Shown here: positions 1 through 32,000 of the stretch, one piece after another
How positions within the stretch are numbered: the stretch's first letter is position 1
How the letters are laid out: each line of letters opens with the position of its first letter
From: Candidatus Nanogingivalaceae bacterium
GTDB lineage: Bacteria; Patescibacteriota; Saccharimonadia; Saccharimonadales; Saccharimonadaceae
Direction: 5' to 3'
NCBI GenBank assembly: GCA_015257795.3
Contig: CP072208.2
Span: forward strand, 600,001-632,000
Length of the DNA stretch: 32,000 nt
Notes under the pieces: model-generated
Told to the model about the DNA's origin: nothing
The model's database searches: none
Seen by the model: the letters and a program-made list of their open reading frames with translations, nothing else
Translations under genes and position numbers: made by a program

Positions 1-248
1 TTCGAACGAAATTTATCAATATCTTTCTGCTTCATTGAAAGAATATTCACGCCATCCATTAAAACTTCACCTTCTTCTGGCGCGTCCAAACCGCTCATCG
101 CGTGAATCAATGTTGATTTTCCGCTTCCCGATTTTCCAATAATCGCCACGCTTGCGCCTTTTGGAATTTTAAAACTTACATTTTTTAAAGCTTGAAAACT
201 ATTTTTCTTTTTACCGTAAGTTTTTGAAATATTTCGAACTTCAATCAT
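1..248 (-). CDS. ABC transporter ATP-binding protein, N-terminal part only (rest lies beyond the window start)
   Basis: Hand translation of the minus strand from ATG at 248 gives [66 protein letters not shown]... with Walker A GKSGSGKST. An SD GGAGCG lies at 251-257. It is absent from the ORF track because it is truncated. It sits 14 nt downstream of the PspC-domain gene on the same strand. Confidence 0.85.
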   Translation of the reverse strand, partial: MIEVRNISKTYGKKKNSFQALKNVSFKIPKGASVAIIGKSGSGKSTLIHAMSGLDAPEEGEVLMDGVNILSMKQKDIDKFRS

Positions 249-262
249 ATCGCTCCTTTTAA

Positions 263-1849: not shown

Positions 1850-1858
1850 ATTTCTCCT

Positions 1859-2200: not shown

Positions 2201-2206
2201 ACTTCT

Positions 2207-2235
2207 ATGTTATACAAGGTAGCTTAAAAAGTCAA
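2207..2235 (-). promoter_or_regulatory. Putative sigma70-type promoter of the padR operon (TTGACT-17-TAACAT), only 6 nt upstream of the ATG
   Basis: Minus strand reads TTGACTttttaagctaccttgtaTAACATagaagtATG. No SD is present. Confidence 0.4.
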
Positions 2236-2250
2236 GTACTTTTTTCGAAA

Positions 2251-2285
2251 AATAAAAAAGTTTGCTTGAAAACAAACTTTTTTTA
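2251..2285 (-). terminator. Rho-independent terminator downstream of galE
   Basis: Stem AAAAAGTTTG (2255-2264) pairs with CAAACTTTTT (2273-2282) around an 8-nt loop. A T-run follows on the minus strand. Confidence 0.6.
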
Positions 2286-3381: not shown

Positions 3382-6192
3382 CTAAAGAATATTTTTAAGA
3401 TACTTTCCCGTCCAGCTTTTTTCGACTTTCGAAACTTGCTCAGGTGTTCCGGTTGCCACAACAGTTCCACCGCCAGCACCACCTTCTGGCCCCATATCAA
3501 TTAACCAATCGGCACTTTTAACCATATCCAAATTGTGCTCAATAATCACCATTGAATTACCAGCATCAACTAAACGATTCAAAATTGAAAGCAATCTTTT
3601 CACATCCGCATTATGAAGACCAGTCGTTGGCTCATCTAAAATATACATTGTCTTTCCAGTCGAAGCACGCGCAAGCTCAGTTGCAAGCTTAATTCGTTGT
3701 GCCTCACCGCCCGAGAATGTTGTTGCAGGCTGACCAAGTTTAATGTACCCCAAACCAACTTCTTGAATCGTTTTTAATTTGCGATAAATTGCAGGGATAT
3801 TTTCGAAAAACTCTGTTGCTTCGTCAATCGTCATCTCTAAAACATCCGAAATCGTCTTTCCCTTATAAAGAATTTCTAACGCTTCCCGATTATATCGCTT
3901 GCCGTGGCAAACATCACATTCCACATAAACATCTGGTAAAAAGTGCATTTCAATCTTAATAACACCATCACCCTGACAATTCTCACAGCGACCCCCCTTA
4001 ACATTAAAACTGAACCGACCAGCTTTATATCCACGAATATTTGCTTCAGGCGTGCCAGCAAAAAGTTCACGAATTTGAGTGAAAACGCCCGTATAAGTTG
4101 CTGGATTCGAACGCGGTGTGCGACCAATTGCGCTCTGATCAATGACAATTGCTTTATCGAGTTTTTCCAAACCTAAAATTTCATCATGCGCACCAGGAAC
4201 TTCTTGTGCACGATGCTTCCGTGCTAACAATTCTTTACTTAAAATTTCATTAACTAAGGTTGACTTTCCACTTCCCGAAACACCAGAAACTACTGTCATT
4301 ACGCCTAATGGAATTTCAACATCGATATTTTTCAAATTATTTTCACGAGCGTTTTTGATTACTAACTTTTCATTCTTTTGAATTTTGCGTCGGTTTTTTG
4401 GCGTTTGAATTTTATCTTCGCCACTCAAAAACTTTCCTGTTAGTGATTTTGGATTTTTCGAAACCTCTTCAGGTGTGCCAGAAGCCACAATCATTCCACC
4501 ATTTACACCAGCACCAGGACCAACATCAACTAGCCAATCCGCCGCCCGAATAGTATCTTCATCATGCTCCACCACCAAAACAGTATTGTTTAAATCACGC
4601 AGGTTTTTTAGCGTTGCAATCAATTTATCATTATCTCGTTGATGAAGCCCAATCGAAGGCTCATCGAGGACATAAAGCACTCCTTGAAGGCCAGAACCAA
4701 TTTGTGTTGCCAAACGAATTCGCTGCGCCTCGCCACCGCTCAAAGTGTTTGCCGCGCGCGAAAGCTCCAAATAATTCAAGCCAACATTATTCATAAAGCC
4801 CAATCTCGAAGAAATTTCTTTTAGGATTTGAGTTGAAATAAACTTTTGCTGCTCGTTTAATTCTAAATTCTTAAATAGTTCAACCGCCTCGTCAATTGCA
4901 AGGTCACAAATTTCAACAATATTCAAACCAGCCACCGTCACAGCAAGAACGACTGGCTTTAAACGTTTTCCACCGCAAGTTTGGCATTTTCGAACACGCA
5001 TAAATCTTTCGATATCCTTGCGCTGGAATTCGCTATCTGTATCTCGATGGCGACGCTCCAAATTTGGAATTACGCCTTCAAAATTCATATTATAAACCCG
5101 GCCGTTCATTTCGATCGGATATTTTTCATCTGTTTTTGTGCCGTATAAAATAATTTCAATCGCTTCTTTTGAAAGCTTTTTGGTTGGAACTTTTGTTGAA
5201 AATCCATAACGTTTTGCAACTTCCTCAAGCAATTTAATTCGATAGCCCTTTTCCATCACACGATTATACGGACGAATTGCGCCTTCGGAAATCGTCAAAT
5301 TTGGTGAAAGCACTAATTCTGGGTCAATTTCCATTCGTGTTCCAAGCCCGGAACAAGTTTCACAAGCTCCTTGTGGTGCGTTAAATGAAAACAATCGTGG
5401 TTCAAGCTCAGGAATATGCTCATCTGGGTGAAGTTCACAAGCATAACGTTGTGAGAAAATTTTAACTTCGCCAGTTTCATCATCTAAAACCTCAAGAATT
5501 CCATTTGTCATATCTAGAGCCTGCTCAACACTTTGAGCTAAACGTGTCCGCATTTCTTTCGAAAGAACTAAACGATCAACTACAATTTCGATATTGTGCT
5601 TAATATTTTTTTCAAGCTCAGGGAATTCATCCAAAGCGTAAATTACACCATCAACACGAGCACGAGCAAAACCTTTTTTCGAAAATTCAACAGGAACGTG
5701 CGCAAATTCACCTTTTTTAGCTTTCGCAATTGGTGCAAGCAAAATTAATCGAGACCCTTCTTTGAGGTTCATAATTCCATCAACGATACTTTGCGGTGTA
5801 CGGCGAACCACATCTCGACCACAAATCGGACAATGCGGCGTGCCAATTCGTGCGAAAAGAAGACGCAAATAATCATAGATTTCAGTTACAGTCGCTACAG
5901 TTGAACGTGGATTTCGGCTAGTAGATTTTTGATCAATTGAAATCGCAGGGCTAAGTCCAGTAATTTGATCTACATCTGGCTTATCCATTGTGCCTAAAAA
6001 TTGTCGTGCATAAGAATTAAGGCTCTCCATATAGCGACGCTGGCCTTCCGCATAAATCGTATCAAACGCCAAACTAGACTTTCCACTACCAGAAAGCCCT
6101 GTTATTACCACTAGTTTATCGCGCGGAATCTTTAAATCTACATTTTTTAAATTATGTTCGCGCGCGCCCTTAATTTCCAAAAAATCCGCCAT
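3382..6192 (-). CDS. uvrA: Excinuclease ABC subunit A
   Basis: 936 aa. It begins [54 protein letters not shown], has two ABC ATPase modules (GLSGSGKSS and GVSGSGKST), and carries Cys-rich zinc modules. Confidence 0.97.
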
Positions 6193-6215
6193 AATTCTCC
6201 TTTATTATTCGAACT

Positions 6216-6244
6216 ATTATACCATATTTTTCGAATTCTTTCCA
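6216..6244 (-). promoter_or_regulatory. Putative uvrA promoter TGGAAA-17-TGgTATAAT (extended -10)
   Basis: Minus strand reads TGGAAAgaattcgaaaaatatggTATAATagttcgaataataaaGGAGaattATG. Confidence 0.5.
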
Positions 6245-12994: not shown

Positions 12995-13008
12995 TAGTAT
13001 CTATTATA

Positions 13009-13438: not shown

Positions 13439-15109
13439 TTATTTCAAGAATCCCATCACAATAATTACAACCAAACTGATAATCGTTAAGATTGCCATAA
13501 TTGGAGCAGTTCGTTTTACCCAGTTTTTATATGGCACACCAGCAAGCGCCAAACCAGCCATCAATGATGCGATCGTTGGTGCAATCATATTTAGCAATCC
13601 CGAGGCTGTCGCAAATGCAACAACAGCAATCTCTTTAGTAGAACCAGCTAAACTTGCAACAGGTGCAATAATCGGCATTGTTGCCTCCGCTAAACCTGAA
13701 GATGAAGGAATTATAAATGACATTGGAATATAGAAGATAAATGCCAAAACGCCAAATATTTGCGAAGGAACCTTGCGTAACAAGTCTTCACCCCAATAAA
13801 CAATCGTATCTTGAATTCCACCAGCACGCATCAAAACGCCAATTGCAGCAGCAACCGCAATGATTAATGCAACATTTAATAGATCAGCTGAACCTGCAAG
13901 AAAGGTATTAGTTACTGAAATATCTTCTTTTTTAAATTCTTCATAATATAGAATTTTAATAAGAACCGTCGATATCAAGAACAATGCTGAAATTTCATTA
14001 AAGTACCAACTACCGAACGCTACTGAATGTTCAAAACCGAAAACTGGTCCAACAACAGGCAAAGTTGCAAGCCATTCGTGCCATTCTTTAAAGAAAGAAA
14101 CCCCTAGATCCTCCCATGGAATCAATGACATAACCATTACAAGGAATGTAAAGCCAAAAATTCCCATAACGAATTTTCGTTCAAGAGTAAATTTTGGAAT
14201 ATTCGAAGCATCGATTGATTTAACTGCTGGTTTACCCTTTGAATCTTCAGCATAACCACCAGCTTTAACTTTTCCAGCATATCGCATCGTAAAAATGATT
14301 GAAGCGATCAAAGATACAACCAAAATAACAAATTGAGGTAAAAGAACTTTTGAAAGATCCGCCCCAGCAGCATTTGCAGCAATTCCTGTTGAGAACGGGT
14401 TAACAGTTGACGCTAAAACACCAACTCCAGCGCCCAGAACAATCACCATTACTGCGGTCATTGCATTATAGCCAGCCGCTAACATAATTGGCACAACTAA
14501 TGCATAAAAGGCCACTGCCTCCTCTTGCATACCGTAAGTTGTTCCACCAATCGCAAAGAGCGTCATTAAGACTGGAATCAACCATTTCTCTTTGCCTTTC
14601 ATCTTTTTGAGAAGCCCACCGATTGAAGCATCGAGAGCACCGGTTTTCATTACAACACCCAAAAATCCACCAAGGATTAGCACGAACACAATTACATCGA
14701 GTTTATTCACCATTCCATAAATCGGCGAAGTGAAAATATCCCAAAAACCTTGTTTTAGATTAATATAGAAATCTTTGTTATCCTTTTTGGCATTTTCGTA
14801 ATCTTTTTTAACGTTTTTATATCCTTTGCTTTCAGCATCAGAAGCCGAAATCTCATTTTTCGGATCCTTAACTTCCTCAACAACCTTCAAACGCTTTTCA
14901 GTTCTAGTATAACTTCCCGATTTAATTGAAGATTCACCTTTTTCATTAGTTGTGTATTCATATCGCCCTGACGGAATCAACCAAGTTAATCCCGCCATAA
15001 TCGCGATTATGATAAACAAAACACTAAAAGCTGAAGGTGATTTAAAAACTTTCAGTTTTTTCGAAACCTTTTTATCAGTTTTCTTTGCATCAACTTTTTT
15101 TGTAGCCAT
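13439..15109 (-). CDS. YfcC/DcuC-family (C4-dicarboxylate anaerobic carrier fold) transporter, putative arginine/ornithine antiporter
   Basis: 556 aa polytopic membrane protein with a YfcC-like sequence (…GMQEEAVAFYALVVPIMLAAGY…, …SSGLAEATMPIIAPVA…). It lies immediately downstream of arcB. Confidence 0.8.
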   Translation of the reverse strand: MATKKVDAKKTDKKVSKKLKVFKSPSAFSVLFIIIAIMAGLTWLIPSGRYEYTTNEKGESSIKSGSYTRTEKRLKVVEEVKDPKNEISASDAESKGYKNVKKDYENAKKDNKDFYINLKQGFWDIFTSPIYGMVNKLDVIVFVLILGGFLGVVMKTGALDASIGGLLKKMKGKEKWLIPVLMTLFAIGGTTYGMQEEAVAFYALVVPIMLAAGYNAMTAVMVIVLGAGVGVLASTVNPFSTGIAANAAGADLSKVLLPQFVILVVSLIASIIFTMRYAGKVKAGGYAEDSKGKPAVKSIDASNIPKFTLERKFVMGIFGFTFLVMVMSLIPWEDLGVSFFKEWHEWLATLPVVGPVFGFEHSVAFGSWYFNEISALFLISTVLIKILYYEEFKKEDISVTNTFLAGSADLLNVALIIAVAAAIGVLMRAGGIQDTIVYWGEDLLRKVPSQIFGVLAFIFYIPMSFIIPSSSGLAEATMPIIAPVASLAGSTKEIAVVAFATASGLLNMIAPTIASLMAGLALAGVPYKNWVKRTAPIMAILTIISLVVIIVMGFLK

Positions 15110-15122
15110 TTTTTCTCCTAAA

Positions 15123-16112: not shown

Positions 16113-16115
16113 TTA

Positions 16116-17366
16116 TTAAATCTCCTCTCTCCAAATTGGCATTGACATACATCGTGGACCTCCTCGACCGCGGCCAAGTTCGGCACCTTGAATTTCAATC
16201 ACTTCAACACCAGCTTCGCGTAAAGCTTTGTTTGTTACGTAGTTTCGATCATAAGTAACCACAACACCTGGTGCAATTGCTAGCGTATTTGAGCCATCGT
16301 TCCATTGCTCACGAGCAGCAGCAATCGGATCACCATCTCCACATTGAATCAAAGTTACATGGTCAAGACCAAGAACTTCTTCCAAGGTTTCTTTTAGATT
16401 TGTTCGGTGCGTAATTTTTGGCTGTCCTGGGATACCAGAATCTTCCAAAATATAAATGTTCAATTCGCCATCTTTATCTAGAATTTCAGGGTGAACTGTA
16501 AACTTATCTCGATCAATCATTGTGAAAACAGTATCGAGATGCATAAATGCATGCGAAACTGGAATCTGAATTGCCAAGATTTTATTAAAGTCTGAAAATT
16601 CAAACAATTTCGAAGCAACTTTTTCAATAGCTTCAGGAGTTGTTCGTTGCGAAACGCCAATTGCCATCACGTTCCTTGAAAGCACGAGTTCGTCGCCACC
16701 TTCCATATTAAATTTATTGTAACGGTCAAACCAAACTGGCACTTCTCCACCGGGAGTTTTGGCAGCAAAACGTGGGTGATAGCGCATGATATATTCCATG
16801 AACAAGCTCTCACGTCGACGTGCTGGATAACGCATCTTATTGATTGTCAAGCCATTTCCAACTGCTGCGGCTGGATCGCGCGTAAAATAAAGGTTTGGCA
16901 TTGGGTCAAGTAAGAATGGATAATTACTCTTAAAATAATAATTCAAATGAGTTTTCTCATCTTCTTCAGTTTTAATTTCATCCTTTTTTACTCCAGACAT
17001 AAGTTTTCGAACTAAATCGAGTGGCTCAAACTCACCTAAATAACGCATTAAAGCGTGAGTAACGTGTCGTTCTCCCTGTTTTGAGGCTCGAACAAAATCT
17101 GAAATAAAACGCCATTTAATCTCATCATTATAAAGTGATTCTGCGGCTAATTGATCAAGATAAAGAACTTCAACCCCCCGGCTGCGCAGAGTTTCTGCAA
17201 AAGCGTCATGTTCTGCTTGCGCAACTTCCAGATATGGAATATCGTCAAAAAGCAATTGTTCCAAATATTCTGGAGTAAGCCCTTCAAGTTCTTTTCCTGG
17301 TCTATGTAAAATTACGGTTTTGAGTTTTCCGATTTCACTATTCACCTGAATCGGTTTTTCACCCAT
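16116..17366 (-). CDS. arcA: Arginine deiminase
   Basis: N-terminus [23 protein letters not shown], the MHLDTVF block, and a C-terminal catalytic Cys context (GGPRCMSMP). The start was set to the ATG at 17366, after AAGGGAGGGAAT; the track ORF starts 42 nt upstream. Confidence 0.95.
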
Positions 17367-17398
17367 ATTCCCTCCCTTATTTTTATGTTTATGCTTTA

Positions 17399-17427
17399 AT
17401 TTTATCATAAAGCTTAAGTTTTATCAA
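17399..17427 (-). promoter_or_regulatory. Putative arcA promoter TTGATA-17-TAAAAT
   Basis: Minus strand reads TTGATAaaacttaagctttatgaTAAAAT, about 32 nt upstream of the arcA ATG. The -35 overlaps the palindrome ATCAA-N5-TTGAT (17423-17437). Confidence 0.5.
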
Positions 17428-17503: not shown

Positions 17504-17821
17504 ATGGTGAAGATTAAAGCGAAACATAAGTTTCGTAAAAAAACGATCGAAATGGATATTCCAGAAAACACACTTATCCATGCTGAAAAAGGTTACGGCT
17601 GGGCGGTCCGAAGCATTTTCGAATCTTATTTACAGATATGCCACTATCAAAGAGGGAAACTTCATCCTCAAAGTATAAAATTCTGGCGAGTTGAGTCGAA
17701 AACCCCTAAGCAAACTTTCGCACACCGAACAGATAATCTTTCGGCTTGCAAAAAAGAAAATTGCTCATTTTGCAATGCTGGAAAATACGAAGAATGTCCA
17801 AATAATCGCCACAAATTATAA
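17504..17821 (+). CDS. Hypothetical basic protein with a C-terminal Cys cluster (C-X4-C-X2-C-X7-C)
   Basis: 105 aa with a strong SD (GGAGGTGATTAACT before the ATG), its own promoter and a terminator. I recognise no domain. Confidence 0.6.
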   Translation: MVKIKAKHKFRKKTIEMDIPENTLIHAEKGYGWAVRSIFESYLQICHYQRGKLHPQSIKFWRVESKTPKQTFAHRTDNLSACKKENCSFCNAGKYEECPNNRHKL

Positions 17822-19180: not shown

Positions 19181-20864
19181 TATCCTCGCCTAAAATAATA
19201 ATTATATCCACACCTTCGCCATATGAAGATAACTTAGACGGAAGTTTTTCGGCTTTTGTAGAATACTTAGATTCAAGTTTTTTAACCGTATTCGGTTTTG
19301 ATTCTTGCTTAATATAATAAACTTTCGTTTTCTCATAATCATGCGTTGGAGCAGAATCAATACCCTGAATAGTATAACCTTCTTTTTCGAGCTTCTTTTG
19401 TTCTTGAGCTGCTAGTCCGGAATAATTCGTACCATTCAAAATTTTAATTTTGGCCGATTCTTTCACTATATCACCGCCTAAAGTATTTTTTGAAATATAT
19501 GCTTGAATTTCACTATAGTCAAAAAGTCCAGCTTTAGGAATAACCGCGCTAACAGATCCTACATGACCTGTTGTAAAATAGTTTCCGGACGCATCAGACT
19601 CACTCACTAGAGGCAAAGATGTCATTTTGCCGCTATTGAAGCTTTGAGCAATTTCTGAAACAGTTGTCAATTCTGAAGATTCGAATGTATGGTGAATATT
19701 TTCACCAAGCGAATTCGCAATTGATAGCAGAGTTATCGGATTCATTTTTTGCTGATTAATTTTAGCTAATGTAGCTTTTAGGATTTTTTGCTGATTTCGC
19801 TCGCGGTCAAAATTACTTCCGCTCAAACCAACTCCACCCTCAGAGCCACGCGCTCGAGAAAATGCCAAAGCAGCCGCACCATCCATATGGTAAGTTTTAC
19901 CACTCTGGTAATTGATTTTAGTAGCAACGTCATAAACTCTATTTGAGCCGTCATAAGCTTCGACCTTAACATCAATTCCACCAACAGCATTCACCGCATC
20001 AATCAAAACTTTCCAGTTTCCATGAACTACGTATTGAATATCTAGCCCAAGAATTTCTTTCACCTTTTCAGACAACACTTTTTGGCCGGCTTTCTCTGCA
20101 TCTTCTTCGCTCAAACCACTGTTTTTCGCATCATGATAACCGCATCCATAGGTTTCATTCAACTTTCCAGCAGTAGTTCCAAGCCAAGTTTTACATGTAT
20201 GTTTTACCCAAAGGTCTCTTGGTAATGAAACGGTTTTAATTTCTTTATTTTCTTGATTAACAGAAGCAACCATAATTGAGTCTGTCAATTCTTCCCCGTC
20301 CCAACCTTTTGGTGAAGTTCCAAAAATTAAAATATTGGTGCGACCATTTGAATCAGCCTTAAGTTTTTTGTTCTCAATAACACCAAGGATATTTCCATTA
20401 GTAATTTTATTTAACGTATTAAGTGTTGGATAGATTAACCATCCACCAATGACCAATAATAGTAATATAACAATAGCAAAAAATCGCTTAATTGATCGGC
20501 GTTTTTTAAACTGTTCTAAGGTTAAAGGCTTTTTGCCTTTCTTTTCTCGCTTAGCGTTATTCTTTTCGAACTTTCGAAGTAGTTTTTGATGCTTTTTTGA
20601 GGCAACTCTCTCCCTATGTTCAGCTTCTTGCAATTCTTCAATTTCTAGATTTTGCAATGCAGCTTCGATATCTTTGCCCGAATCTTTTTCATTCTTTTCA
20701 GGTTTTTTAGTTTGAACAAAATCATCAACAGAACCTCTTTTTTGAGATTTTACCACTTTTAAATCTGGTTTCTTAACTGTTTCTTTAGGGCTGTTATTTA
20801 GACTTAGAGATTCAGCCCTCCGCCTTGGCGTAAATCCGTCTATCGATCTCTGATTTTTTTTCAT
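19170..20864 (-). CDS. LytR-CpsA-Psr (LCP) family glycopolymer ligase with a C-terminal LytR_C-like domain
   Basis: Basic cytoplasmic tail, one TM segment, the LCP core TNILIFGTSPKGWDGEELTDSIMVASVNQENKEIKTVSLPRDLWV, and the C-terminal KIKILNGTNYSGLAAQEQKKLEKEGY. The ATG at 20864 is preferred over the TTG at 20876. It overlaps the upstream gene by about 53 nt. Confidence 0.88.
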   Translation of the reverse strand: MKKNQRSIDGFTPRRRAESLSLNNSPKETVKKPDLKVVKSQKRGSVDDFVQTKKPEKNEKDSGKDIEAALQNLEIEELQEAEHRERVASKKHQKLLRKFEKNNAKREKKGKKPLTLEQFKKRRSIKRFFAIVILLLLVIGGWLIYPTLNTLNKITNGNILGVIENKKLKADSNGRTNILIFGTSPKGWDGEELTDSIMVASVNQENKEIKTVSLPRDLWVKHTCKTWLGTTAGKLNETYGCGYHDAKNSGLSEEDAEKAGQKVLSEKVKEILGLDIQYVVHGNWKVLIDAVNAVGGIDVKVEAYDGSNRVYDVATKINYQSGKTYHMDGAAALAFSRARGSEGGVGLSGSNFDRERNQQKILKATLAKINQQKMNPITLLSIANSLGENIHHTFESSELTTVSEIAQSFNSGKMTSLPLVSESDASGNYFTTGHVGSVSAVIPKAGLFDYSEIQAYISKNTLGGDIVKESAKIKILNGTNYSGLAAQEQKKLEKEGYTIQGIDSAPTHDYEKTKVYYIKQESKPNTVKKLESKYSTKAEKLPSKLSSYGEGVDIIIILGEDNGE

Positions 20865-22257
20865 AAGCTCTTTCAATTATAGCAAAAATGAAAGCTAAAA
20901 TCAAATAAATATGTAGTGCATTTGGTAATCCTGAGAAGAAATACCACTGGATTAAAAATGCAAAAACTAATGCCCAAATATATTTTTTATCTTTAGCTAA
21001 TCTAATTATTGAAAACAAAATGAGAGACCAAATTAGAAAACCAAAAATACCAAGTTCTAACAAAATTGATAGAAATTCATTCTGAACAATTTCTGAAGTG
21101 TTTGCAATTTTGTGTGTAGAATTATAAATTGCAGCACCTGATCCGCCAGCGCCAACACCAAAAAACATTGCAAAAATATTTGAGCGCCAAGTTTCAACTG
21201 CTAAGTCTGACATCTTCGTTCGTTCATCTGTTGATTTTTCAACATATCCATTGAATAATGCTTTTTTTGAATACTGGATATTTTTTTGATTATTATGCTG
21301 ACTTTCGAAACCTTCAATTGCTGGCTCATTGATTTCATGATTCCCCGTTTTTTCAATTTTCGGCAAACTAATTTTACCTAAACTCATCTGGTTTATACTT
21401 TTCGAAATCGAATCATAAAAACCATCACTAATTCGCGGATTCAATTCTGTAAAAATTGCATGAAAAATCATTCCACTTAAAAAACTCGAAAGTATAAAAC
21501 TTATTGAAATTATTATATTCGAAAGTATTTTTCTTTTCGAAAATGGCTGATTAACAAAAATAAGAATTAAAATTGCAAAAAATGCCGCAAAAATTGCCCC
21601 ACGTGAAAGTGTTAAATATAACGAGAATAATAAAATCCAAAGTGTTATTTTTTCAAATTTCGAAGCTTTTTTGCTAAAAATCTTGTGAGTTAATAAAACT
21701 ATTGGCGCCAAAAGCATACTTCCAAAAAATTGCGGCTCAATCGCAAAAACACTTGGTCGCACAAACCCAAACCCCTGAGCCCTGCATCCTGCACACAACC
21801 CCCAATCTGTCCAAGCACCATAAATAACTTGAATAATTGACAAACAAGCCATTACCAAACTACTAAAAATAAAGTTTTTAGTTATCTTTTGAAAAAGTAC
21901 TCTGTTTTTCGAAAGACTTAAAATTACCAAAAAATTAAGCCATAAAACCAACCAAACTCCTGAAACTAATACCGTTCTTAGTAAATTTTGCGTATTTAAA
22001 ATTGTCAAAAAATTCCAAAACACAAAAAATCCAGTTAGCAAAACAGCGTTATTTTTTATTAATTTTTTACGGTTTTGGTAAATTGTTTTAATTCCAGCCA
22101 GAGCTAAAACAACTACATAAATTAAAGCAATCGAAAACTCTAAATTCGCACCCGCAGATTTTCCAAAATGAAAATTAGGATAATATGAAAACCACATTGC
22201 GAATGGCGCAAAAAACAAAACCTTTTCAGCAAAATTTAACTTTTTAAAATTTTCCAT
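20812..22257 (-). CDS. O-antigen ligase / Wzy-like polymerase family membrane protein
   Basis: 481 aa with about 10-12 TM helices and the Wzy_C-type motif LTLSRGAIFAAFFAILILIF. It overlaps the upstream GT4 stop by 14 nt. Confidence 0.8.
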   Translation of the reverse strand: MENFKKLNFAEKVLFFAPFAMWFSYYPNFHFGKSAGANLEFSIALIYVVVLALAGIKTIYQNRKKLIKNNAVLLTGFFVFWNFLTILNTQNLLRTVLVSGVWLVLWLNFLVILSLSKNRVLFQKITKNFIFSSLVMACLSIIQVIYGAWTDWGLCAGCRAQGFGFVRPSVFAIEPQFFGSMLLAPIVLLTHKIFSKKASKFEKITLWILLFSLYLTLSRGAIFAAFFAILILIFVNQPFSKRKILSNIIISISFILSSFLSGMIFHAIFTELNPRISDGFYDSISKSINQMSLGKISLPKIEKTGNHEINEPAIEGFESQHNNQKNIQYSKKALFNGYVEKSTDERTKMSDLAVETWRSNIFAMFFGVGAGGSGAAIYNSTHKIANTSEIVQNEFLSILLELGIFGFLIWSLILFSIIRLAKDKKYIWALVFAFLIQWYFFSGLPNALHIYLILAFIFAIIERAYEKKSEIDRRIYAKAEG

Positions 22258-23386
22258 TAAAATTCCTCTTTATCTCTTCTTCAAAATTCTTCTTAAATTC
22301 CTCTTTCGAAAATTTCTTTGCGCTTTCTGAAACTTTTTCAGCATCAAAACTTATTTTTTCGAATTTTTCAACTGCTTCTAAAATTGATGTTGAAGATTGT
22401 TCGTTAAAAAATACACCGTTCTCACCATCTTTAATATAATCTTGAGCGCCGCCTTGATTAAAAGCCAAAACTGGCGTTCCTGTAGCCAATGCTTCGATCG
22501 GTGCGATACCGAAAGGTTCTAAGCTTGGAAAAACAAAACCTTTTGCCTCAGCCACGATTTTCGAAAGTTCAAGAGGGTCACTAATTCGCGGAATAAACTC
22601 GATGTTTTTAGCGCCCCCAGCTAATTCAACCAGTTTTTGATGTTCAGCACCGCCCCCAACTAAAACTAACTTTTTGCCGTTCTTCGAAAAAGCTTCGACC
22701 GCTAAATCTAACTTCTTCCAATTCACTTGGCGCGAAGTTGTAATATAATAATCTTTTTTATTTCTTTCAAGTTTAAACTTATCAACTTCTACTGGCGGAA
22801 AAATAACACTCGCATCACGTTTGTAATATTTTGAAATTTCATCTTTCGAATAACTTGAATTCGCAATTAGAAAATCTGGCTTTTGAGCAAGCTTAAAGTC
22901 GTTTTTTCGAAGCGGATTAACTAAAATTTTAAAGAAAAAACGCACCAAAAAACTTAATTTACCAAACCCGGGATTGTTAACATAATCATCATACATTCCC
23001 CAATAATATTGAATTGGTGGACCTTGTAAATAGCTAATATGTAGCTGTTTTTTTGAAAGGTTCAGCCCCTTACTTTCAGCACAACAAATTGAAATAACAA
23101 CATCAAAATCTTTTAGCTTTTTACCTAAATTTCGAAAATATAAAACTCGTCCAACTGGTAAAATTTTGCGCATTTTTGCAGGAAAAATATTTAACCAGCC
23201 CGTTTTAACCTGCTTATCCGAAAACCAATCTACTTCTTTTTCGGAATATTGAGAAGTAAAAATTGGTGCTTCTGGAAAAATTTCCGAAACAGTTAATACG
23301 ACTTTTTCAGCTCCCCCGTAAGTCGTCAACCAATCAGTCACAATTGCAACTTTTTTACCCTTAAGCCATTTTGGATTTTTATTCAT
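22244..23386 (-). CDS. Glycosyltransferase family 4 (GT-B, retaining)
   Basis: 380 aa with the EX7E region GFVFPSLEPFGIAPIEALATGTPVLAFNQGGAQDYIKDGENGVFF. A TAATG start/stop overlap links it to the upstream gene. Confidence 0.9.
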   Translation of the reverse strand: MNKNPKWLKGKKVAIVTDWLTTYGGAEKVVLTVSEIFPEAPIFTSQYSEKEVDWFSDKQVKTGWLNIFPAKMRKILPVGRVLYFRNLGKKLKDFDVVISICCAESKGLNLSKKQLHISYLQGPPIQYYWGMYDDYVNNPGFGKLSFLVRFFFKILVNPLRKNDFKLAQKPDFLIANSSYSKDEISKYYKRDASVIFPPVEVDKFKLERNKKDYYITTSRQVNWKKLDLAVEAFSKNGKKLVLVGGGAEHQKLVELAGGAKNIEFIPRISDPLELSKIVAEAKGFVFPSLEPFGIAPIEALATGTPVLAFNQGGAQDYIKDGENGVFFNEQSSTSILEAVEKFEKISFDAEKVSESAKKFSKEEFKKNFEEEIKRNFNGKF

Positions 23387-24804
23387 TATTTTGCCCCTTT
23401 TCGAAAAATCACACTCGCAACAGTTTTAAATAAAATTTGAATATCGAAAATAATTGACCAGTTCTGCACATAGTATACATCCAAGCGACGACGTTCTTCA
23501 AAAGAAATATCACGCCGACCAGAAACCTGCGCTAAACCTGTTACTCCAGCTTTAACAGCCAGAATAACATTTTTACGATTTGATTTATTAATTTCTTGAG
23601 GAATTAACGCGCGCGGTCCAACCAAAGAAATATCTCCTCGAATAACATTGAAAAGTTGAGGGAGTTCATCTATCGAAGTTGCCCGAATAAATTTACCAAT
23701 TTTTGTAACCCGCGGATCATCATCTAACTGGTCACCGTTTTCGCGATATTTTTTCGAAAGTTCAGGTCTACCCATTTTTTCGAAAGCTTGTTCAGGAGTT
23801 AGGCCATCAAATTCAGCCTTTTGTGAGCGGAATTTATATATATAAAACTCCCGATTAAAGCGCGTTAAACGAACTTGTTTAAAAAAGATTGAATCCTTTG
23901 GTGCAGTAATCTTCATAATAATAGCTACCGTCAGCATAATTGGACTGGCCAAGATTAAACCAATCCAGCCTAAAGTTAAATCCATCAAGCGTTTCCAGAT
24001 TCGACCCATACCAAAAAGCTTCGTAACTTTAACATCGATTACCGGCAATCCACCAACAACCTCAATTGTATTAATTTGCGACAACAACCGATCTTGTTGT
24101 GGCACAAACATATACTCTAGGTGATTTTCAATTGCATAATTATAAATATCCTCACTCCTGAGAGCATCTGTTTGAATTAGGATATCTGGATCGGTTTTTA
24201 AAACCGCCTCTTTAAAACTCGAGAAGTGCCGAACGCCAGTATTCAAAGGTAAAAACGCACTTTTCGAAACCATTCCAATCGTATCATATCCAAAATCAAT
24301 ATTATCATGAAAGAATTGCGCTAAATCTGTTGAACGTGAATTTGAACCGATGATTAAAACTTTTTGCCTACCGAAACCGCTCCTAATCAAAGCTCGCCGA
24401 ATAAAACGCACAATTTCGCGACCAAGAATCATCATTAAAAAGTTAATCGGCACAAAGAAAATCGCGATTATCCGAACTGGAAAAACCTCATCACCAGTAA
24501 AGAATTCATAAGAAATCATCGCCATAATACTGATAACTGAAACGATTAGCGCTCTTCCATACTCCTTTGGTCGATAAAAAAATACCGAGCGTTCATAAAG
24601 TCCAAAAAAATAGTTAATCGCTAACCAAAGTGGCAAAAGCGAAACCGCTAGAAAAACAAAATTCCAAATATTTGGCGCAAAATAATATGCTCGTGTATCA
24701 AGATGGGTTCGTGCAAAATATGCTAGCATAAATGAGCTTACAACCGCTAGGGTATCAGAGGCTAACATAATTATGCGAACAATCGTAAGTTTGTCTCGTT
24801 TCAT
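23386..24804 (-). CDS. Polyprenyl-phosphate hexose-1-phosphate transferase (WbaP/CpsE-like initiating sugar transferase)
   Basis: 472 aa with an N-terminal 4-5 TM helices and the C-terminal bacterial sugar transferase domain (KDSIFFKQVRLTRFNREFYIYKFRS…DELPQLFNVIRGDISLVGPRA). Confidence 0.9.
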   Translation of the reverse strand: MKRDKLTIVRIIMLASDTLAVVSSFMLAYFARTHLDTRAYYFAPNIWNFVFLAVSLLPLWLAINYFFGLYERSVFFYRPKEYGRALIVSVISIMAMISYEFFTGDEVFPVRIIAIFFVPINFLMMILGREIVRFIRRALIRSGFGRQKVLIIGSNSRSTDLAQFFHDNIDFGYDTIGMVSKSAFLPLNTGVRHFSSFKEAVLKTDPDILIQTDALRSEDIYNYAIENHLEYMFVPQQDRLLSQINTIEVVGGLPVIDVKVTKLFGMGRIWKRLMDLTLGWIGLILASPIMLTVAIIMKITAPKDSIFFKQVRLTRFNREFYIYKFRSQKAEFDGLTPEQAFEKMGRPELSKKYRENGDQLDDDPRVTKIGKFIRATSIDELPQLFNVIRGDISLVGPRALIPQEINKSNRKNVILAVKAGVTGLAQVSGRRDISFEERRRLDVYYVQNWSIIFDIQILFKTVASVIFRKGAK

Positions 24805-28691: not shown

Positions 28692-31239
28692 TCAAAACCT
28701 TCTTAATCTCGTCAATTACAAAATATTCAGAATGCGTAGCCTTTTCAGCAATTTCTTCTGACACTTTTGACATTTTAGCGAGCTTATCGTTTGAAGTTTT
28801 TTCTAGATTTAGACTTTCTTCTATTGCATCACAAAGTGTTTGATAATCATCGTTTCGAACAGCCCAACCATTACCACCATCGATTAGTTGTTCCTCTTGA
28901 CCATAACAATCATTTCGAATAATCGGATGACCAAATGCCATACCTTCATAAACAAAAATTCCCATTGACTCATGATAAGAGTAGCAAATTGTCATATTAG
29001 CTTCTTCCACAAAATCTAGAACTTTTGCTCTCGGAATTTGTCCTACAATTTCACATTTTCCATCTAATCCCTTGGCAGAAACCTCCATTTGTTTTTTAAT
29101 ATATCCAGCTTCATCGACACCAATAAATTTCAAACTAAAATCACGATATGTTTTAGGGTTTTTCTTATAGAAATTGTTATAGAAATTCAAGAATGCATAA
29201 AGAATTGGCAACTGTCCTTTTCGGCCATCAGAAACCGCTCCAGTAACGATAAAGTCAAGTTTTTCGAAGTCTTCAGGATCTTTAACTGCAAATCGATCAC
29301 TCGGAAAATCAAATCTAAAGTTCATAACTTCCGTATTTTTATCTGTTCCGAAGAATTCTTTATAAGCTTCCGCACTGCCTTTCGATACGGCATAAAGTTT
29401 AGCTTTATTACTTTCAAGAAGTTTAACAAATTCATCCCTTGTATCCAAATCTACAAATCTTTCAGGAGTAGCTTCATGGCCATACCAATAAAAAGCATCA
29501 AGGGTATTGTTTTTAGCAGCCTGAATTGTTGAATGTGTAACAGCCCTAGAAAGTCCAAAACTATTTAGAATAACTATATCACCCTTATTGTAGTTCAACC
29601 AAAGGTTTCTATCTGTGTAAATTTCAACTTCGATACCAGCTTTCTTTAATTCTCGAACATTTTCAATATTAATTGGCGTAAAGGCAATAAATTTTAATTT
29701 TCGCCCAAGATTTTTAACCTGTTTTTGGATATCGAAAGCCAAATCCATTGCGACAAATGGAGCGCCCGTATTATCAAGTTGGTGAGATACAATAATTATC
29801 TTTGGTTTTTTATCGATATTAGAAACTGTTTTTCTCTTGATTTTTCGAACAACTTTGTCTGTTGCTATTTTATATGTTGCCGCGAATCCGTTGTTTTTGT
29901 AATATCGTAGGGCTTTACCTGTGATTCGTCGTGCTTTATTTTTAGCTCGAACAATTCTGCTTCCACTTGCATTTTGAAGCACTGGCGAATTCAGAATTTC
30001 AACTTCCTTCAAAAGCCCCGCGTCGGCAGGTTTATAACCTTTAGAAATTAGTTTACTTAGATTTTCAGTAACTTTATCCCAATAAAATAGTCTTCTAACT
30101 TTTGAAAGATTTGTTGAAACTTGTTTGAGAGTTTCTTTATCTTTCGAAATTTTAATAATCTCTTTTTCGATAGTTTTTGCATCAAGATCTGGCAAAATAT
30201 AAACCGCTTTATTTGCTTCCAAAATATCACTCATTGGGTCACCGCCGTTCGTAACAATTGGTAGGTCGGCCCAAACATAATCAACCAACCGCGTTCTCCA
30301 AGCGAGCGTATTCTCCATTCCAATATTGTTAATCAGCACTACAGCATCACTTCCAAGATACCATTCAGCCCTATCTTCAAATTTAACCCAATCAGTAATA
30401 TGAACGATTTCATCCATATTATTATTTTTAATATAGTCCATGACCTCTTCGTATCTTTTTATGAAATCTGGGTGTTGATTGAATGGATTTTTAACTCCAA
30501 CCATGATTAATTCAATTGGTGTTGTTTTATTGGCATTTTTAACAGCCTCGAGTAGATTAGTGAGATCAAACCAAGGGTAAATTCCACCAAACCACAACAG
30601 TTTGAAAGCCTTTTTATTCTTAACAAGTTTCGATACTGGATCATTCTTAGCTACCGCTTTTTCTCGATAAATACCATAAGGAACAATCTGAATTAGATCT
30701 TCATCACCATAAGTTATTGGATTTATTCGGCCAACTTGCGCCATCACGCCTGTGTAAAATTTCTTTTGAGCTTCGTTTGCACATAGCAAAATATCACCTC
30801 TTCTCAAGGCTTTTGTCCATATCTTATTTTCGAAATTAAACGCATCATATTCACGATCAAGGTTATCTGAATTTCGTGCAGACATCTCAATGTGAATAGG
30901 AACATACCCATCCAATATTAACTGCTGATCTTGACGTATATTATCAACAACTGTTTGCGTTATATCTCCAGCATTATAACTAACAAGAACTGAATCAAAT
31001 TCTTGAATTTTCTCTGCCAATGTCGATATTTCCCAAGTAGAAATTTTAATACCATTTAATTCATCCGTAAAATTATCTTGTTTAAAAACTTGGTTATATG
31101 AAACTTCAACTTCATACTTATCTTTTGAATTATTTTGAAGTCCATTCGCTAGCCCCCAAGCTCTCAATCCACCACCTTCAACATTTTTAATTTCTGGTGC
31201 TGGAACTGGACCATTCGAAATGATTAAAATTTTTTTCAT
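28681..31239 (-). CDS. Two-module glycosyltransferase (tandem GT-B/GT4-like domains)
   Basis: 852 aa. Module 1 starts MKKILIISNGPVPAP…GGGLRAWGLANGL. Module 2 starts near residue 490 (PKIIIVSHQLDNTGAPFVAMDLAF) and ends with the GT4-type block ESMGIFVYEGMAFGHPIIRNDCYGQEEQLIDGGNGW. A TAATG overlap links it to the upstream gene. SD AAGGAG. Confidence 0.85.
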   Translation of the reverse strand: MKKILIISNGPVPAPEIKNVEGGGLRAWGLANGLQNNSKDKYEVEVSYNQVFKQDNFTDELNGIKISTWEISTLAEKIQEFDSVLVSYNAGDITQTVVDNIRQDQQLILDGYVPIHIEMSARNSDNLDREYDAFNFENKIWTKALRRGDILLCANEAQKKFYTGVMAQVGRINPITYGDEDLIQIVPYGIYREKAVAKNDPVSKLVKNKKAFKLLWFGGIYPWFDLTNLLEAVKNANKTTPIELIMVGVKNPFNQHPDFIKRYEEVMDYIKNNNMDEIVHITDWVKFEDRAEWYLGSDAVVLINNIGMENTLAWRTRLVDYVWADLPIVTNGGDPMSDILEANKAVYILPDLDAKTIEKEIIKISKDKETLKQVSTNLSKVRRLFYWDKVTENLSKLISKGYKPADAGLLKEVEILNSPVLQNASGSRIVRAKNKARRITGKALRYYKNNGFAATYKIATDKVVRKIKRKTVSNIDKKPKIIIVSHQLDNTGAPFVAMDLAFDIQKQVKNLGRKLKFIAFTPINIENVRELKKAGIEVEIYTDRNLWLNYNKGDIVILNSFGLSRAVTHSTIQAAKNNTLDAFYWYGHEATPERFVDLDTRDEFVKLLESNKAKLYAVSKGSAEAYKEFFGTDKNTEVMNFRFDFPSDRFAVKDPEDFEKLDFIVTGAVSDGRKGQLPILYAFLNFYNNFYKKNPKTYRDFSLKFIGVDEAGYIKKQMEVSAKGLDGKCEIVGQIPRAKVLDFVEEANMTICYSYHESMGIFVYEGMAFGHPIIRNDCYGQEEQLIDGGNGWAVRNDDYQTLCDAIEESLNLEKTSNDKLAKMSKVSEEIAEKATHSEYFVIDEIKKVLNEN

Positions 31240-32000
31240 TATTTCTCCTTACTACTATCTTTATGAATAATCTTATGTAGACCAAACCACTTTCGGTTTT
31301 CTAGTTCTTCAATATTATTCTCTAAATTTTTTACATTATTTTCATGATGCTTAATGATTAGCCCTTGCTCATCTATAAACTTCTGTCTATCACTTAATAG
31401 CTTGTTCCGCTCTAAAATTGAAATCTCTTTTTCCGCAAGATAGTTTTCAAGTGTGGTTTGTTTTTCTAAGAGCTCCTTAATCGCCTGTAAAAAATTAACT
31501 TTTTCTTGATATTTTTGTAAAAATTTTATCTGCGTTTGAAGTAGTCGCTGGTTTCTTTCTTGAATTCTCGAAAGATCTTCTGGATGGGAGTCTGATCCTG
31601 TAGTAAACCTATATGCAACCATTGGCTCTTCTATTGTTGAAAGTTTGGTCTTAACAAATAATTCCAGTTGGATATCAAATGTATCATCAGGAGTTTTAGT
31701 ATCAAGTGTATTGTTTATTTCCTTCATTAGTTCAGTATTAACTAACCATGTTGAAGCATTTGTAAAACCTTTAGAAATTAACATCTCAGTAAAATCTTCG
31801 GGCATTTTTACAAATTTTTCAGCGAAAGACTTTTTAAAAAGAATTTCCCCTTCCTCATTCTCAGTTTGAAATTCAGTATTACACCATTTCGAATCTTTAT
31901 TACTCTCGAGAAGATCGACTTGTTTTTGTAGCTTATCTTTTTTAATCCAATAATCATCACCGTCGCACCGAGCTATATATTTGCCTCGAGCCTTATTACA
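31239..32000 (-). CDS. Glycosyltransferase family 2 with a C-terminal coiled-coil extension (5' end beyond the window)
   Basis: The reading frame stays open to the window edge. Hand translation of 31806-32000 gives …ARGKYIARCDGDDYWIKKDKLQKQVDLLESNKDSKWCNTEF…, the classic GT2 DxD region. The track ORF (M at 31805) is therefore only the C-terminal part. Nucleotides 31281-31580 encode a heptad-rich region. Confidence 0.8.
   Translation of the reverse strand, partial: CNKARGKYIARCDGDDYWIKKDKLQKQVDLLESNKDSKWCNTEFQTENEEGEILFKKSFAEKFVKMPEDFTEMLISKGFTNASTWLVNTELMKEINNTLDTKTPDDTFDIQLELFVKTKLSTIEEPMVAYRFTTGSDSHPEDLSRIQERNQRLLQTQIKFLQKYQEKVNFLQAIKELLEKQTTLENYLAEKEISILERNKLLSDRQKFIDEQGLIIKHHENNVKNLENNIEELENRKWFGLHKIIHKDSSKEK

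Follow-up and report, generated by a model that had tools for sequence, protein, structure and literature searches.

The palindromic hexamer TTCGAA and its octameric extension TTTCGAAA were found to be strongly over-represented in a 32,000-nucleotide stretch of DNA from a Candidatus Nanogingivalaceae bacterium (contig CP072208.2, positions 600,001 to 632,000; hereafter the window), and the hexamer is likewise abundant in related lineages of clade G6 of the Saccharibacteria. In this clade TTCGAA is enriched 8-10x over composition, and the signal lies in the DNA duplex and not in codons, peptides or RNA. Going by its parallels with known systems, the word may be a self-DNA tag in natural transformation, possibly via TTCGAA methylation, a reading that we favor tentatively and weigh below against five others.

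Over-representation of TTCGAA in the window

An exact count gave 94 copies of TTCGAA and 45 of TTTCGAAA in the window, the GC content of which is 35.56%; a preliminary description of this DNA, counting by hand, had come close with at least 85, about 45 and about 35%, respectively. These numbers amount to 2.94/kb for the hexamer, i.e., one per 340 bp, and 1.4/kb for the octamer, and make TTCGAA the fifth most frequent hexamer of the window, only T/A runs being commoner. Per strand, composition alone (an order-0 model) predicts 10.9 copies of TTCGAA and 1.1 of TTTCGAAA. Markov models of orders 1, 2, 3 and 4 predict 25, 40, 59 and 77 copies of the hexamer, and those of orders 1 to 6 predict 4.8, 7.3, 11, 20, 38 and 46 copies of the octamer. 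Both words indeed exceed expectation at orders 1-4, and at order 2 by 2.3x (94 vs 40) and 6.2x (45 vs 7.3), respectively; the excess fades at the highest orders because nested sub-words (TTTCG, TCGAA etc.) carry the same signal. In a separate null model, synonymous codons were permuted inside each gene, which preserves both the protein sequence and the codon usage. This yielded 28.1±4.8 hexamers in coding DNA vs 86 observed (z=12.1), that is, about one third, and 9.1±2.8 octamers vs 44 observed (z=12.4). When all hexamers were ranked under the codon-shuffle null, TTCGAA came out on top (z=11) with its own overlapping words next, and the ranking of all octamers was headed by TTCGAAAA and TTTCGAAA. 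TCGA lying outside TTCGAA was not enriched (121 vs ~134 expected at order 1). Chance or composition is ruled out as the cause by the Markov and codon-shuffle nulls, and the deviation is in the direction opposite to the usual avoidance of restriction-type palindromes, a point on which the preliminary description is supported.

Anatomy, reading frames and spacing of the motif

The word occupies all three codon phases, with 18 copies as TTC-GAA, 26 as xTT-CGA-Axx and 42 as xxT-TCG-AAx, and another 8 lie outside open reading frames (ORFs). Although its density is ~4/kb in non-coding DNA vs 2.85/kb in coding DNA, 91% of the copies are intragenic. Positions at which the protein sequence permits the hexamer synonymously carry it in 86 of 199 cases (~43%), and the occupancy is nearly the same in each frame (0.45, 0.46 and 0.41, respectively). 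The equal frame occupancy and the 8 non-coding copies bear out the earlier claim that the motif occurs in every codon phase and in intergenic DNA, and the same occupancy, with the codon-shuffle z of ~12, agrees with the view that the force acts at the DNA level and is not a codon or amino-acid preference.

Given the counts of TTCG, CGAA and CG, the two half-sites co-occur in the hexamer 1.95x, and in the octamer 3.4-3.9x, more often than under independence (four separate loci); halves that co-occur 2-4x above independence rule out a half-site (CpG-context) effect alone. The base at -1 is T in 80-81% of TTCGAA copies (plus strand) vs 41% for TTCG outside the palindrome, the base at +1 is A in 60% vs 39% outside it, and the base at -2 is T in 58%, so that the extended consensus reads tTTTCGAAAa, with information decaying outward. 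The unit of the motif is the whole palindrome, 8 to 10 bp long. A palindromic unit with cooperative halves implies recognition of duplex DNA by a symmetric (dimeric) protein, and the evidence thus points to a reader that is a symmetric sequence-specific protein acting on double-stranded DNA.

The gaps between copies fit an exponential distribution (coefficient of variation 0.75-1.26), the variance/mean in 2-kb bins is 1.04, and no clustering was seen near gene starts. The preliminary description had stressed an uneven density; its local counts were right (19 copies in 20.5-24.3 kb and 7 in the arc/yfcC region), but the unevenness is not meaningful, since the spacing is Poisson-like. What appears uneven is scatter plus the per-gene number of permissive peptide contexts. 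The stretch 20565..24268 is within Poisson scatter and its proteins offer many such contexts, and in the arc region 7 of 19 permitted positions are occupied (37% vs 43% overall), which lends no support to that region as a low-density island or foreign DNA. There are no tRNA or Rfam RNA genes in the window, which rules out tRNA T-loops (GGTTCGAATCC) or other RNA genes as the source of the word.

Extent and phylogenetic distribution

The window is 100% identical over 11.8 kb to CP076102 (JB003, clade G6, HMT-870; complete genome of 691,584 bp); its UvrA relatives place it in the Saccharibacteria, and one of its proteins is present on many oral-metagenome contigs as well as on CP076102.2. The enrichment is not confined to the window, a possibility that the preliminary description had left to be checked: the density is 3.0-3.3/kb in the 10 kb past one end, 2.65/kb past the other, and 3.4/kb at an unlinked locus of the same clade that holds the genes for pyruvate kinase (PK) and ComEC, where 34 octamers lie within 21 kb. 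Independent assemblies (metagenome-assembled genomes and metagenome scaffolds) that stem from other studies, strains and species agree with this density, which excludes a nanopore artefact. It is to be noted that the non-redundant enriched-clade DNA that was read comes to ~115 kb, that the comparisons are of 10-30 kb samples with crude ORF calls, and that 10-40 sites underlie several of the contrasts.

At the UvrA locus, two sister species (loci L001 and L002, ~85% DNA identity) carry 2.7-3.0 TTCGAA/kb, and all other Saccharibacteria (UvrA <=75% identity) and ~60 other bacteria carry <=0.8/kb, mostly below expectation; of the permitted positions, 42-47% are occupied in the clade vs 0-13% elsewhere. 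The PK locus was surveyed in 80 metagenome loci, with several additional contig look-ups. Lineages with a PK 93-100% identical to that of L146 have 2.1-3.6/kb, and L232 (GCA_049294455.1, 'Ca. Nanogingivalis sp.', GC 42%) has 2.66/kb. L243/L244 (OEAS01000003.1 and ERZ773065 NODE-183) stand at 0.37-0.51/kb, which is about chance, and L231/L245 (ERZ27319162 k141_612373 and ODVC01000018.1; GC 33%, same gene order) have a single TTCGAA in 21 kb (0.05/kb; observed/expected (o/e) ~0.14-0.2), a depletion that rests on 1 observed vs 5-7 expected. Overall, the enrichment extends to at least five related species-level lineages and three unlinked regions, at 2.1-3.6/kb, and among sister lineages with the same gene order TTCGAA is enriched ~10x, neutral, or avoided. 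Four BNJS/BNJT contigs (L265, L266, L271 and L246; up to 697,878 bp, i.e., G6-sized) were also seen to have 2.1-3.3/kb; their low 'identity' in the locus table is misleading because of apparent frameshift errors, owing to which conserved genes (PK) are not intact ORFs.

A seven-protein neighbor-joining tree, built with no bootstrap, grouped L232 with L243/L244 and joined them to the L146/L238 clade, with L231/L245 outside. At ten positions with a site in both enriched branches, L243 is one substitution off in seven (five of them CpG transitions) and L231 in three, and L243/L244 keep a raised number of TTTGAA and TTCAAA. Judging from these comparisons, the simplest reading of the distribution would be one origin followed by loss in L243/L244; alternatively, there may have been two independent gains. 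Other Saccharibacteria under-represent the word (o/e 0.53), which is their fifth most depleted palindrome. Because these Saccharibacteria, the sister lineage and the phages related to the G6 prophage all under-represent the site, TTCGAA-cutting enzymes probably circulate in the phylum.

Turnover, conservation and erosion of sites

The window, L001 and L002 are roughly equidistant from one another, and over 11 kb 11 sites are present in all three, 17 in two of the three and 18 in one only. Some of the single-species sites fall where the other two species share a sequence that differs at two positions, and gains as well as losses are seen among the three. An example is the non-coding copy at 2244, which has decayed independently to TTTGAA in L001 and to TTCAAA in L002. 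Since all three hold ~3/kb, the sites turn over while the density is held. Positional conservation of sites was 71% vs a background of 36% in L002, and 50% vs 43% in L001. Where the amino acid is conserved, codons are better conserved in the motif than elsewhere: 0.64 vs 0.39 for TCG, 0.95 vs 0.64 for CGA, 0.56 vs 0.51 for TTC, and 0.92 vs 0.84 for GAA (Cochran-Mantel-Haenszel p=3e-7, or 3e-4 when each species pair counts once). This is the test that was used to argue for selection on HIP1, the highly iterated palindrome of cyanobacteria (PMC5861425).

Among 10 strains of the JB003 species, which diverge by <=3%, a segregating position is found in 25% of sites, the same as in any hexamer. The variants are mostly TTCAAA or TTTGAA, the motif is usually the commoner allele, and for three of the remaining variants the sister species carry TTCGAA; most of the within-species variants look like losses. 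Polymorphism of the motif CpG is 8.9% vs 10.7% for other CpGs, so that no special hyper- or hypo-mutability is seen, and an apparent general CpG excess is mostly a codon-position effect. A McDonald-Kreitman-style contrast of polymorphism and divergence (0.83 vs 0.65) goes in the expected direction, with counts too small to use. Because the motif CpG mutates like others and the variants look like losses, mutation erodes the sites, mainly by CpG transitions to TTTGAA and TTCAAA, and something opposes it at fixation; site-bearing alleles are kept and fixed more often than the synonymous background.

Imprint on proteins and neighboring words

When UvrA of the window, L001 and L002 was aligned codon by codon with that of 14 other Saccharibacteria, only one of the eight motif positions (4106, RSN) was seen to lie on a tripeptide that is invariant across Saccharibacteria. 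The remaining sites fall where the G6 protein differs from the 14 others, mostly at variable residues (Table 1). The site at 4989 is accompanied by a radical amino-acid replacement, and at another site a variable ITK/IAK/VAK tripeptide has become VSK. In a ten-gene comparison of L146, L232 and L231, the first two had 27 private sites each and 8 in common, and L231 had none. Some sites present in one lineage only coincide with amino-acid changes where the other two lineages agree (FG->FE, VKT->VRT, IAE->ISK, FP->FE), and some differ from the state common to the other two by transversions and several substitutions. Enriched genomes have 6.7-8.1 permissive peptide contexts per kb vs 4.2-5.3/kb in their nearest non-enriched relatives; the uptake signal sequence (USS) and the DNA uptake sequence (DUS) likewise roughly double their tripeptides (PMC2817400).

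The words next to TTCGAA are raised as well. The TTYRAA class totals 6.7-8.5/kb vs 2.8-2.9 in same-GC relatives, TTNNAA is also raised, and TTTGAA and TTCAAA together reach 2.5-3.0/kb vs 1.4-1.5. As both the class and the transition neighbors are raised, a central conversion limited to T->C, as in very short patch (VSP) repair, cannot produce the pattern. Sites arise through ordinary single-base changes, synonymous or not, at any of the six to eight positions.

Mobile DNA

A prophage with a tyrosine integrase, TerS and TerL lies between the genes for an amino-acid (carbamate) kinase and trmD in some strains only. This strain-variable prophage has 1 TTCGAA in 7.7 kb (0.13/kb) vs 3.5/kb in its flanks (P=2e-9), and a variant of it has 6; the occupancy of permitted positions is 0.03-0.13. 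Its GC is host-like (36%) and its TTCGAA is at chance. The lack of enrichment in a prophage residing in the same cells makes a generic mutational bias acting on a short time scale unlikely. By analogy, the pattern fits slow accumulation in resident DNA, as with uptake sequences; DUS shows such a residence-time effect, being scarce in recently acquired DNA (PMC2397512, PMC2817400).

Several further features of mobile DNA were observed. TCCGGA seems over-represented in the prophage copies (13 vs 2.4 expected, in four partly redundant loci). One of the small integrative elements, that of L086, also carries a 5-methylcytosine (m5C) methyltransferase (PF00145) and an HpaII-like endonuclease, the latter truncated in L088. 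A phage family (L165-L230, TerL 36-69% identical to that of the G6 prophage) avoids many 6-bp palindromes, with o/e of 0.08 for GGATCC, 0.13 for GGGCCC, 0.16 for AGATCT, 0.18 for TTCGAA and 0.23 for GCATGC, and many of its contigs of 17-21 kb are without any TTCGAA. When viral contigs were scanned for triple octamers, the highest densities were those of L127 (IMGVR_UViG_3300044959_000237, 111 kb) and L140 (IMGVR_UViG_3300020567_000331), at 8.0 and 6.3 TTCGAA/kb, respectively; both have long overlapping ORFs on both strands, and L127 has 5 tRNA genes. Their half-sites are independent (ratio 1.3 and 0.9), TTTGAA/TTCAAA are nearly absent (6 and 10 copies), and blastn found no similarity to G6. 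The independent half-sites and the lack of similarity rule them out as the same phenomenon, and they look like a separate compositional one, of TTCG/CGAA-rich sequence.

Sites and genes of the window

The genes of the window include uvrA, aspS, the arc operon, a PspC-domain protein and cell-envelope polysaccharide genes; the positions of all copies of TTCGAA and of the features discussed are collected in Table 1. The arginine deiminase pathway is split, with arcA, ornithine carbamoyltransferase and the YfcC-like antiporter in the window (13439-17408) and a carbamate-kinase-like gene (AA_kinase) at the unlinked locus beside pyruvate kinase (L146 11536-12471). The strand bias of the window is extreme, 26 of the 27 chosen gene models being on the minus strand and the plus strand having 6704 C vs 4675 G, which is consistent with one replichore in which genes are co-oriented with replication. 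For a sequence of this GC, CGCGCG is over-represented: 10 copies were counted where CG flanks predict 3, and z is 5.9 under the order-3 model. One of them is just inside the uvrA start (GGCGCGCGCGAAC, window 6150-6180). Several palindromes are strongly under-represented in G6 (both strands, observed vs order-2/order-1 expectation): GTAC (22 vs 65-71), GGCC (48 vs 89-95), GATC (126 vs 194-210), CATG (98 vs 147-193), GGTACC (0 vs 5.5) and AGGCCT (1 vs 6.5). Restriction avoidance commonly leaves such a mark, here in a genome that enriches TTCGAA.

Table 1 Copies of TTCGAA and related features. Coordinates are those of the window, or of the named locus where an L number is given; tripeptides are those encoded at the site.
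Feature	Position	Strand	Remarks
TTCGAA starts, part 1	1, 233, 378, 551, 573, 779, 1273, 1289, 1641, 2244, 2445, 2475, 3107, 3203, 3428, 3802, 4106, 4457, 4989, 5558, 5678		
TTCGAA starts, part 2	6208, 6230, 6311, 6343, 6633, 6752, 7645, 8052, 8258, 8363, 8420, 8484, 8800, 8893, 9052, 9147, 9817		
TTCGAA starts, part 3	10401, 10415, 10935, 11636, 12624, 12708, 14202, 15060, 15246, 15560, 15951, 16609, 17006, 17618, 18275, 18647, 19044, 19680		
TTCGAA starts, part 4	20565, 20573, 21304, 21401, 21518, 21536, 21659, 21908, 22305, 22358, 22560, 22683, 22845, 22906, 23131, 23400, 23753, 23779		
TTCGAA starts, part 5	24263, 24903, 24968, 25803, 26220, 26633, 26736, 26811, 27049, 27680, 27958, 27971, 28854, 28914, 29263, 29844, 30143, 30829, 31214, 31888		
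uvrA	3382..6192	-	7 TTCGAA: 3428, 3802, 4106, 4457, 4989, 5558, 5678
uvrA site	3428	-	A/T->S change, same kind as at 4457
uvrA site GTT-TCG-AAA (Val-Ser-Lys)	4457..4462	-	Others V/I-A-K/R/E/D, mostly VAK; Ala->Ser makes the site
uvrA site GTT-CGA-AAA (Val-Arg-Lys)	4989..4994	-	12 of 14 others have Glu/Gln first (ERE, ERK, ERD, QRE etc.)
uvrA site TTT-TCG-AAA (Phe-Ser-Lys)	5678..5683	-	Most other Saccharibacteria Y-x-R
Two non-coding TTCGAA, 22 bp apart	6208-6213 and 6230-6235	.	Just upstream of the uvrA start codon
Non-coding TTCGAA	2244..2249	.	Between epimerase gene and PadR-like gene
TTCGAA in spacer	17618..17623	.	Upstream of arcA
Further TTCGAA outside chosen gene models	1, 233, 25803, 31888		
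Locally dense stretch	20565..24268	.	19 copies; LytR, Wzy, glycosyltransferase and sugar-transferase genes
arc region	13439..17408	-	7 copies; YfcC-like antiporter, ornithine carbamoyltransferase, arginine deiminase
Prophage	L147 12740-21431; L144/L151 3156 onward; L145/L156		Absent from L146 and L148
Strain-variable integrative elements at different chromosomal sites	L086 13721-20100; L088 13721-18249; L150 6045-9500		Serine recombinase and Rep (Phage_CRI or REP_ORF2-G2P)

Comparison with known systems

The TTCGAA system behaves like both HIP1 and DUS/USS, and belongs to neither family. HIP1 (GCGATCGC) and the alternative cyanobacterial palindromes are, like TTCGAA, short palindromes at about one per kb or more, found in all frames and in non-coding DNA, with in-motif codons more conserved and one-off variants common; lineages again differ in which palindrome is enriched, and the core is of the methyltransferase/restriction type with preferred flanks. 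Ideas about HIP1 center on methylation and natural transformation (PMC4390886, PMC5861425, bioRxiv 10.1101/2024.09.10.611283, bioRxiv 10.64898/2026.06.24.733823). In contrast to HIP1, which is cyanobacterial and GC-rich, its words being CGATCG- or GATC-related, TTCGAA is an AT-rich word of Patescibacteria/Saccharibacteria, in epibiont genomes of 0.65-0.7 Mb, and is thus an analogue, not a member. It differs further in being a core hexamer with graded T/A flanks, in its lower order-2 fold (octamer 6x, hexamer 2.3x, vs 15-300x for HIP1), and in that close relatives of the enriched lineages are neutral to or avoid the same word.

DUS of Neisseriaceae and USS of Pasteurellaceae resemble TTCGAA in a density of order 1/kb that is genome-wide and lineage-restricted, and in being placed in coding DNA in all frames, with the proteome shifted and poorly conserved residues preferred. 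They too are conserved yet turning over, which is explicable by molecular drive via biased uptake (PMC2817400, PMC2397512, PMC3630211). DUS/USS are rare in recently acquired DNA; here this applies to the strain-variable prophage at 0.13/kb, but the small integrative elements have 2.3-4/kb and the related prophage L172 ~1.8/kb. Unlike these asymmetric 9-12-mers, which have pilus or outer-membrane readers in diderm Proteobacteria, TTCGAA is a perfect palindrome of 6-8 (or 10) bp in a monoderm-like epibiont.

Other systems share single traits. RAATTY is common by chance in the AT-rich Campylobacter genome, and we know of no report that it has been driven to over-representation. In C. jejuni it resembles the tag proposed here in being a restriction-type palindrome on which N6-methyladenine (m6A), made by the orphan methyltransferase CtsM, marks self in uptake (PMC8468864, PMC10046745). 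The BstBI/AsuII target TT^CGAA is the identical word, and its avoidance in other Saccharibacteria, the sister lineage and phages suits circulating systems; targets of resident restriction-modification (R-M) systems of this type are normally under-represented, unlike TTCGAA at 8-10x over composition. VSP repair (Dcm/Vsr, CCWGG vs CTWGG, in E. coli) is similar in that the turnover is dominated by C/T transitions of the central CpG, and different in that here the T-containing neighbors are elevated, outer positions and flanks are recruited, and amino-acid changes coincide with sites.

Favored reading

Given how closely TTCGAA parallels DUS/USS and HIP1, the ideas that fit best are a tag resembling an uptake signal and/or a palindrome linked to a methyltransferase, and a self-DNA tag in natural transformation is the reading to which we lean. 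It is favored because the DUS/USS signature matches point by point except for symmetry; because Saccharibacteria are competent, comEC is present in the clade and G6 has gaps in nucleotide metabolism; and because there are precedents for methylated palindromes (RAATTY/CtsM and methylated HIP1) and TTCGAA m6A methyltransferases exist. Natural competence has been demonstrated experimentally in G1 Saccharibacteria (PMC10633639), and the enriched clade encodes ComEC (PF03772 and DUF4131). Clade G6 is without several nucleotide-metabolism genes (PMC8386444), and DNA import should therefore be heavily used. Known TTCGAA methyltransferases make m6A (PMC5930826), HIP1 raises transformation when methylated (bioRxiv 10.1101/2024.09.10.611283), and DNA uptake in Campylobacter needs methylated DNA (PMC8468864).

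As to mechanism, the fixation bias would come most likely from natural transformation, in which tag-bearing fragments would be preferentially bound, taken up or recombined, possibly only if methylated by a TTCGAA methyltransferase of the BstBI type. Alleles with the tag would spread as a result, through molecular drive, selection for recognition of self-DNA, or both; proposals of this kind exist for DUS/USS, for RAATTY when methylated in Campylobacter and, of recent date, for HIP1. A dispensable reader gene would underlie the trait, and this dependence would explain why sister lineages are neutral to TTCGAA or avoid it. With corresponding reserve, we consider it possible that clade G6 uses a perhaps methylated TTCGAA as a self-tag and that the trait arose and has since been lost at least once; if so, the candidate phyla radiation would have its first uptake-signal/HIP-like system, and HIP would have originated a second time, independently.

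A number of observations weigh against the self-DNA tag. Known uptake sequences are asymmetric 9-12-mers of diderm Proteobacteria, and transformation in monoderms is generally not sequence-specific. No TTCGAA methyltransferase, endonuclease or binding protein was found in the window, the 10 kb on each side and the ~21-kb PK locus; scans of the window proteins (Pfam, NCBIfam) and the Pfam annotations of the flanking and unlinked loci gave only a tRNA methyltransferase (TrmB), and the sole R-M pair found was the HpaII-like m5C pair on a strain-variable island. The comEC gene is also present in the depleted sister L231 and, by blastp of ORFs, in L243-L245, and competence alone therefore cannot explain the distribution. 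In mobile DNA, the related prophage L172 has ~1.8 TTCGAA/kb, and 2.3-4.1/kb, the chromosomal level, is reached by the small integrative elements (serine recombinase, Rep); the prophage-chromosome contrast is thereby weakened as a clean test of uptake, and the mobile-DNA data are compatible with any slow process on resident DNA. Finally, the positional conservation of sites is only modest in both L001 and L002, and the within-species polymorphism at sites is at background, not reduced. Regarding the search for a methyltransferase, L231 was seen to have an extra 254-amino-acid gene resembling S-adenosylmethionine-dependent methyltransferases (12516-13280; PF03059 NAS, weak Methyltransf hits) between the amino-acid kinase gene and trmD, which the enriched lineages do not have; it is probably unrelated to DNA methylation. 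A literature search on TTCGAA or TTTCGAAA with Saccharibacteria/HMT-870, with subscription journals outside its reach, returned nothing relevant, and neither the G6 genome paper nor a second paper on this organism group speaks of methylation or restriction, the former being silent on palindromes as well.

Alternative explanations

A chromosomal function of the HIP1 type that is unlinked to uptake has a lesser, if appreciable, chance of being correct; the methylated sites would then be under ordinary purifying selection, e.g., for strand discrimination in mismatch repair or for nucleoid/chromosome organization. Hyperabundance, frame independence and in-motif codon conservation all match HIP1 (PMC5861425), the density is of the order that Elhai predicts for methyl-directed repair, ~one site per kb (PMC4390886), and the patchy distribution among sisters suits dependence on a methyltransferase gene. 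However, selection for a chromosomal role does not predict enriched small mobile elements, sister lineages that share the gene order manage without the motif, and polymorphism at the sites is not reduced. We think it unlikely that the sites bind an abundant clade-specific nucleoid-associated protein or global regulator. The T/A flanks around the CpG would suggest shape read-out by a dimer, the flank information is graded and not sharp-edged as is typical of restriction sites, the half-sites are cooperative, and the non-coding density is slightly higher and includes the pair upstream of uvrA. Against this stand the 91% of sites that are intragenic, the uniform occupancy in all frames, the Poisson spacing with no clustering near gene starts, and the extreme cost that thousands of sites per 0.69-Mb genome, plus amino-acid changes, would mean for a regulatory role.

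VSP repair shapes CCWGG-related words in E. coli, and the motif could in the same way be a functionless by-product of sequence-specific biased repair or mutation, such as VSP-like T:G correction in TTYRAA with a cytosine methyltransferase. Turnover among strains and species is indeed mostly between TTCGAA and TTTGAA/TTCAAA, and a ratchet was proposed for HIP1 by Elhai. Yet the transition neighbors are elevated and not depleted, the TTYRAA class is 2.5-3x larger and TTNNAA larger too, outer positions are recruited, some lineage-specific sites differ from the state of the other two lineages by transversions and several substitutions, C-to-T polymorphism does not spare the motif CpG more than other CpGs, the cells have a strain-variable prophage without the enrichment, and the known TTCGAA methyltransferases are m6A, not m5C, enzymes. 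VSP-like repair restricted to CpG transitions is rejected by the neighboring words and the multi-substitution sites, and biased repair in this form is largely refuted, which leaves it a slim chance; the context-specific mutational bias raised in the preliminary description is disfavored on the same grounds, six positions and flanks being recruited and the recent prophage not enriched. It is just as improbable that the excess is a side effect of a resident BstBI-type R-M system, the chromosome being fully methylated and the number of sites raised for the benefit of a selfish R-M or of defense. The word is a type II site of the classical sort, other Saccharibacteria, the sister lineage and related phages under-represent it, and one word in enriched, neutral and avoided states among sister lineages would suit such a system. 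On the other hand, there is no known mechanism by which R-M raises its own sites tenfold, avoidance being the rule; the resident prophage is at chance, not depleted; phages related to it avoid many palindromes and not TTCGAA in particular; and the only R-M genes seen in the regions read were the HpaII-like pair. That amino-acid composition, the use of codons or codon pairs, low GC, T-loops of tRNAs, repeats or errors of assembly created the excess as an artefact can be dismissed for practical purposes. Low GC and T/A-rich codons do lift the baseline, and CGA and TCG are common codons in the window, but codon-preserving shuffles yield one third of the observed count with frame occupancy being equal, the window is without tRNA/RNA genes, its sites are dispersed and not in repeats, and independent assemblies from other studies are enriched too; the shuffles and the 0.05/kb in same-GC relatives refute the artefact or codon reading.

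Significance

To our knowledge, hyperabundant short palindromes have been described essentially from cyanobacteria, where the role of HIP1 has been debated for ~30 years, and uptake sequences from two proteobacterial families. The TTCGAA motif provides an independent case, in ultrasmall epibionts of the human mouth with genomes of 0.65-0.7 Mb. As the sister genomes have ~700 genes and three states of the word, the reader gene should be findable by presence/absence, and nanopore data exist for three complete genomes, namely JB001 (CP072208), JB002 (CP076101) and JB003 (CP076102). In G6 genomes the density of the motif further provides an easy marker with which to bin contigs and to date foreign DNA. 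If transformation does favor tagged or methylated DNA, constructs that bear TTCGAA or are pre-methylated may unlock the genetics of the uncultured G6.

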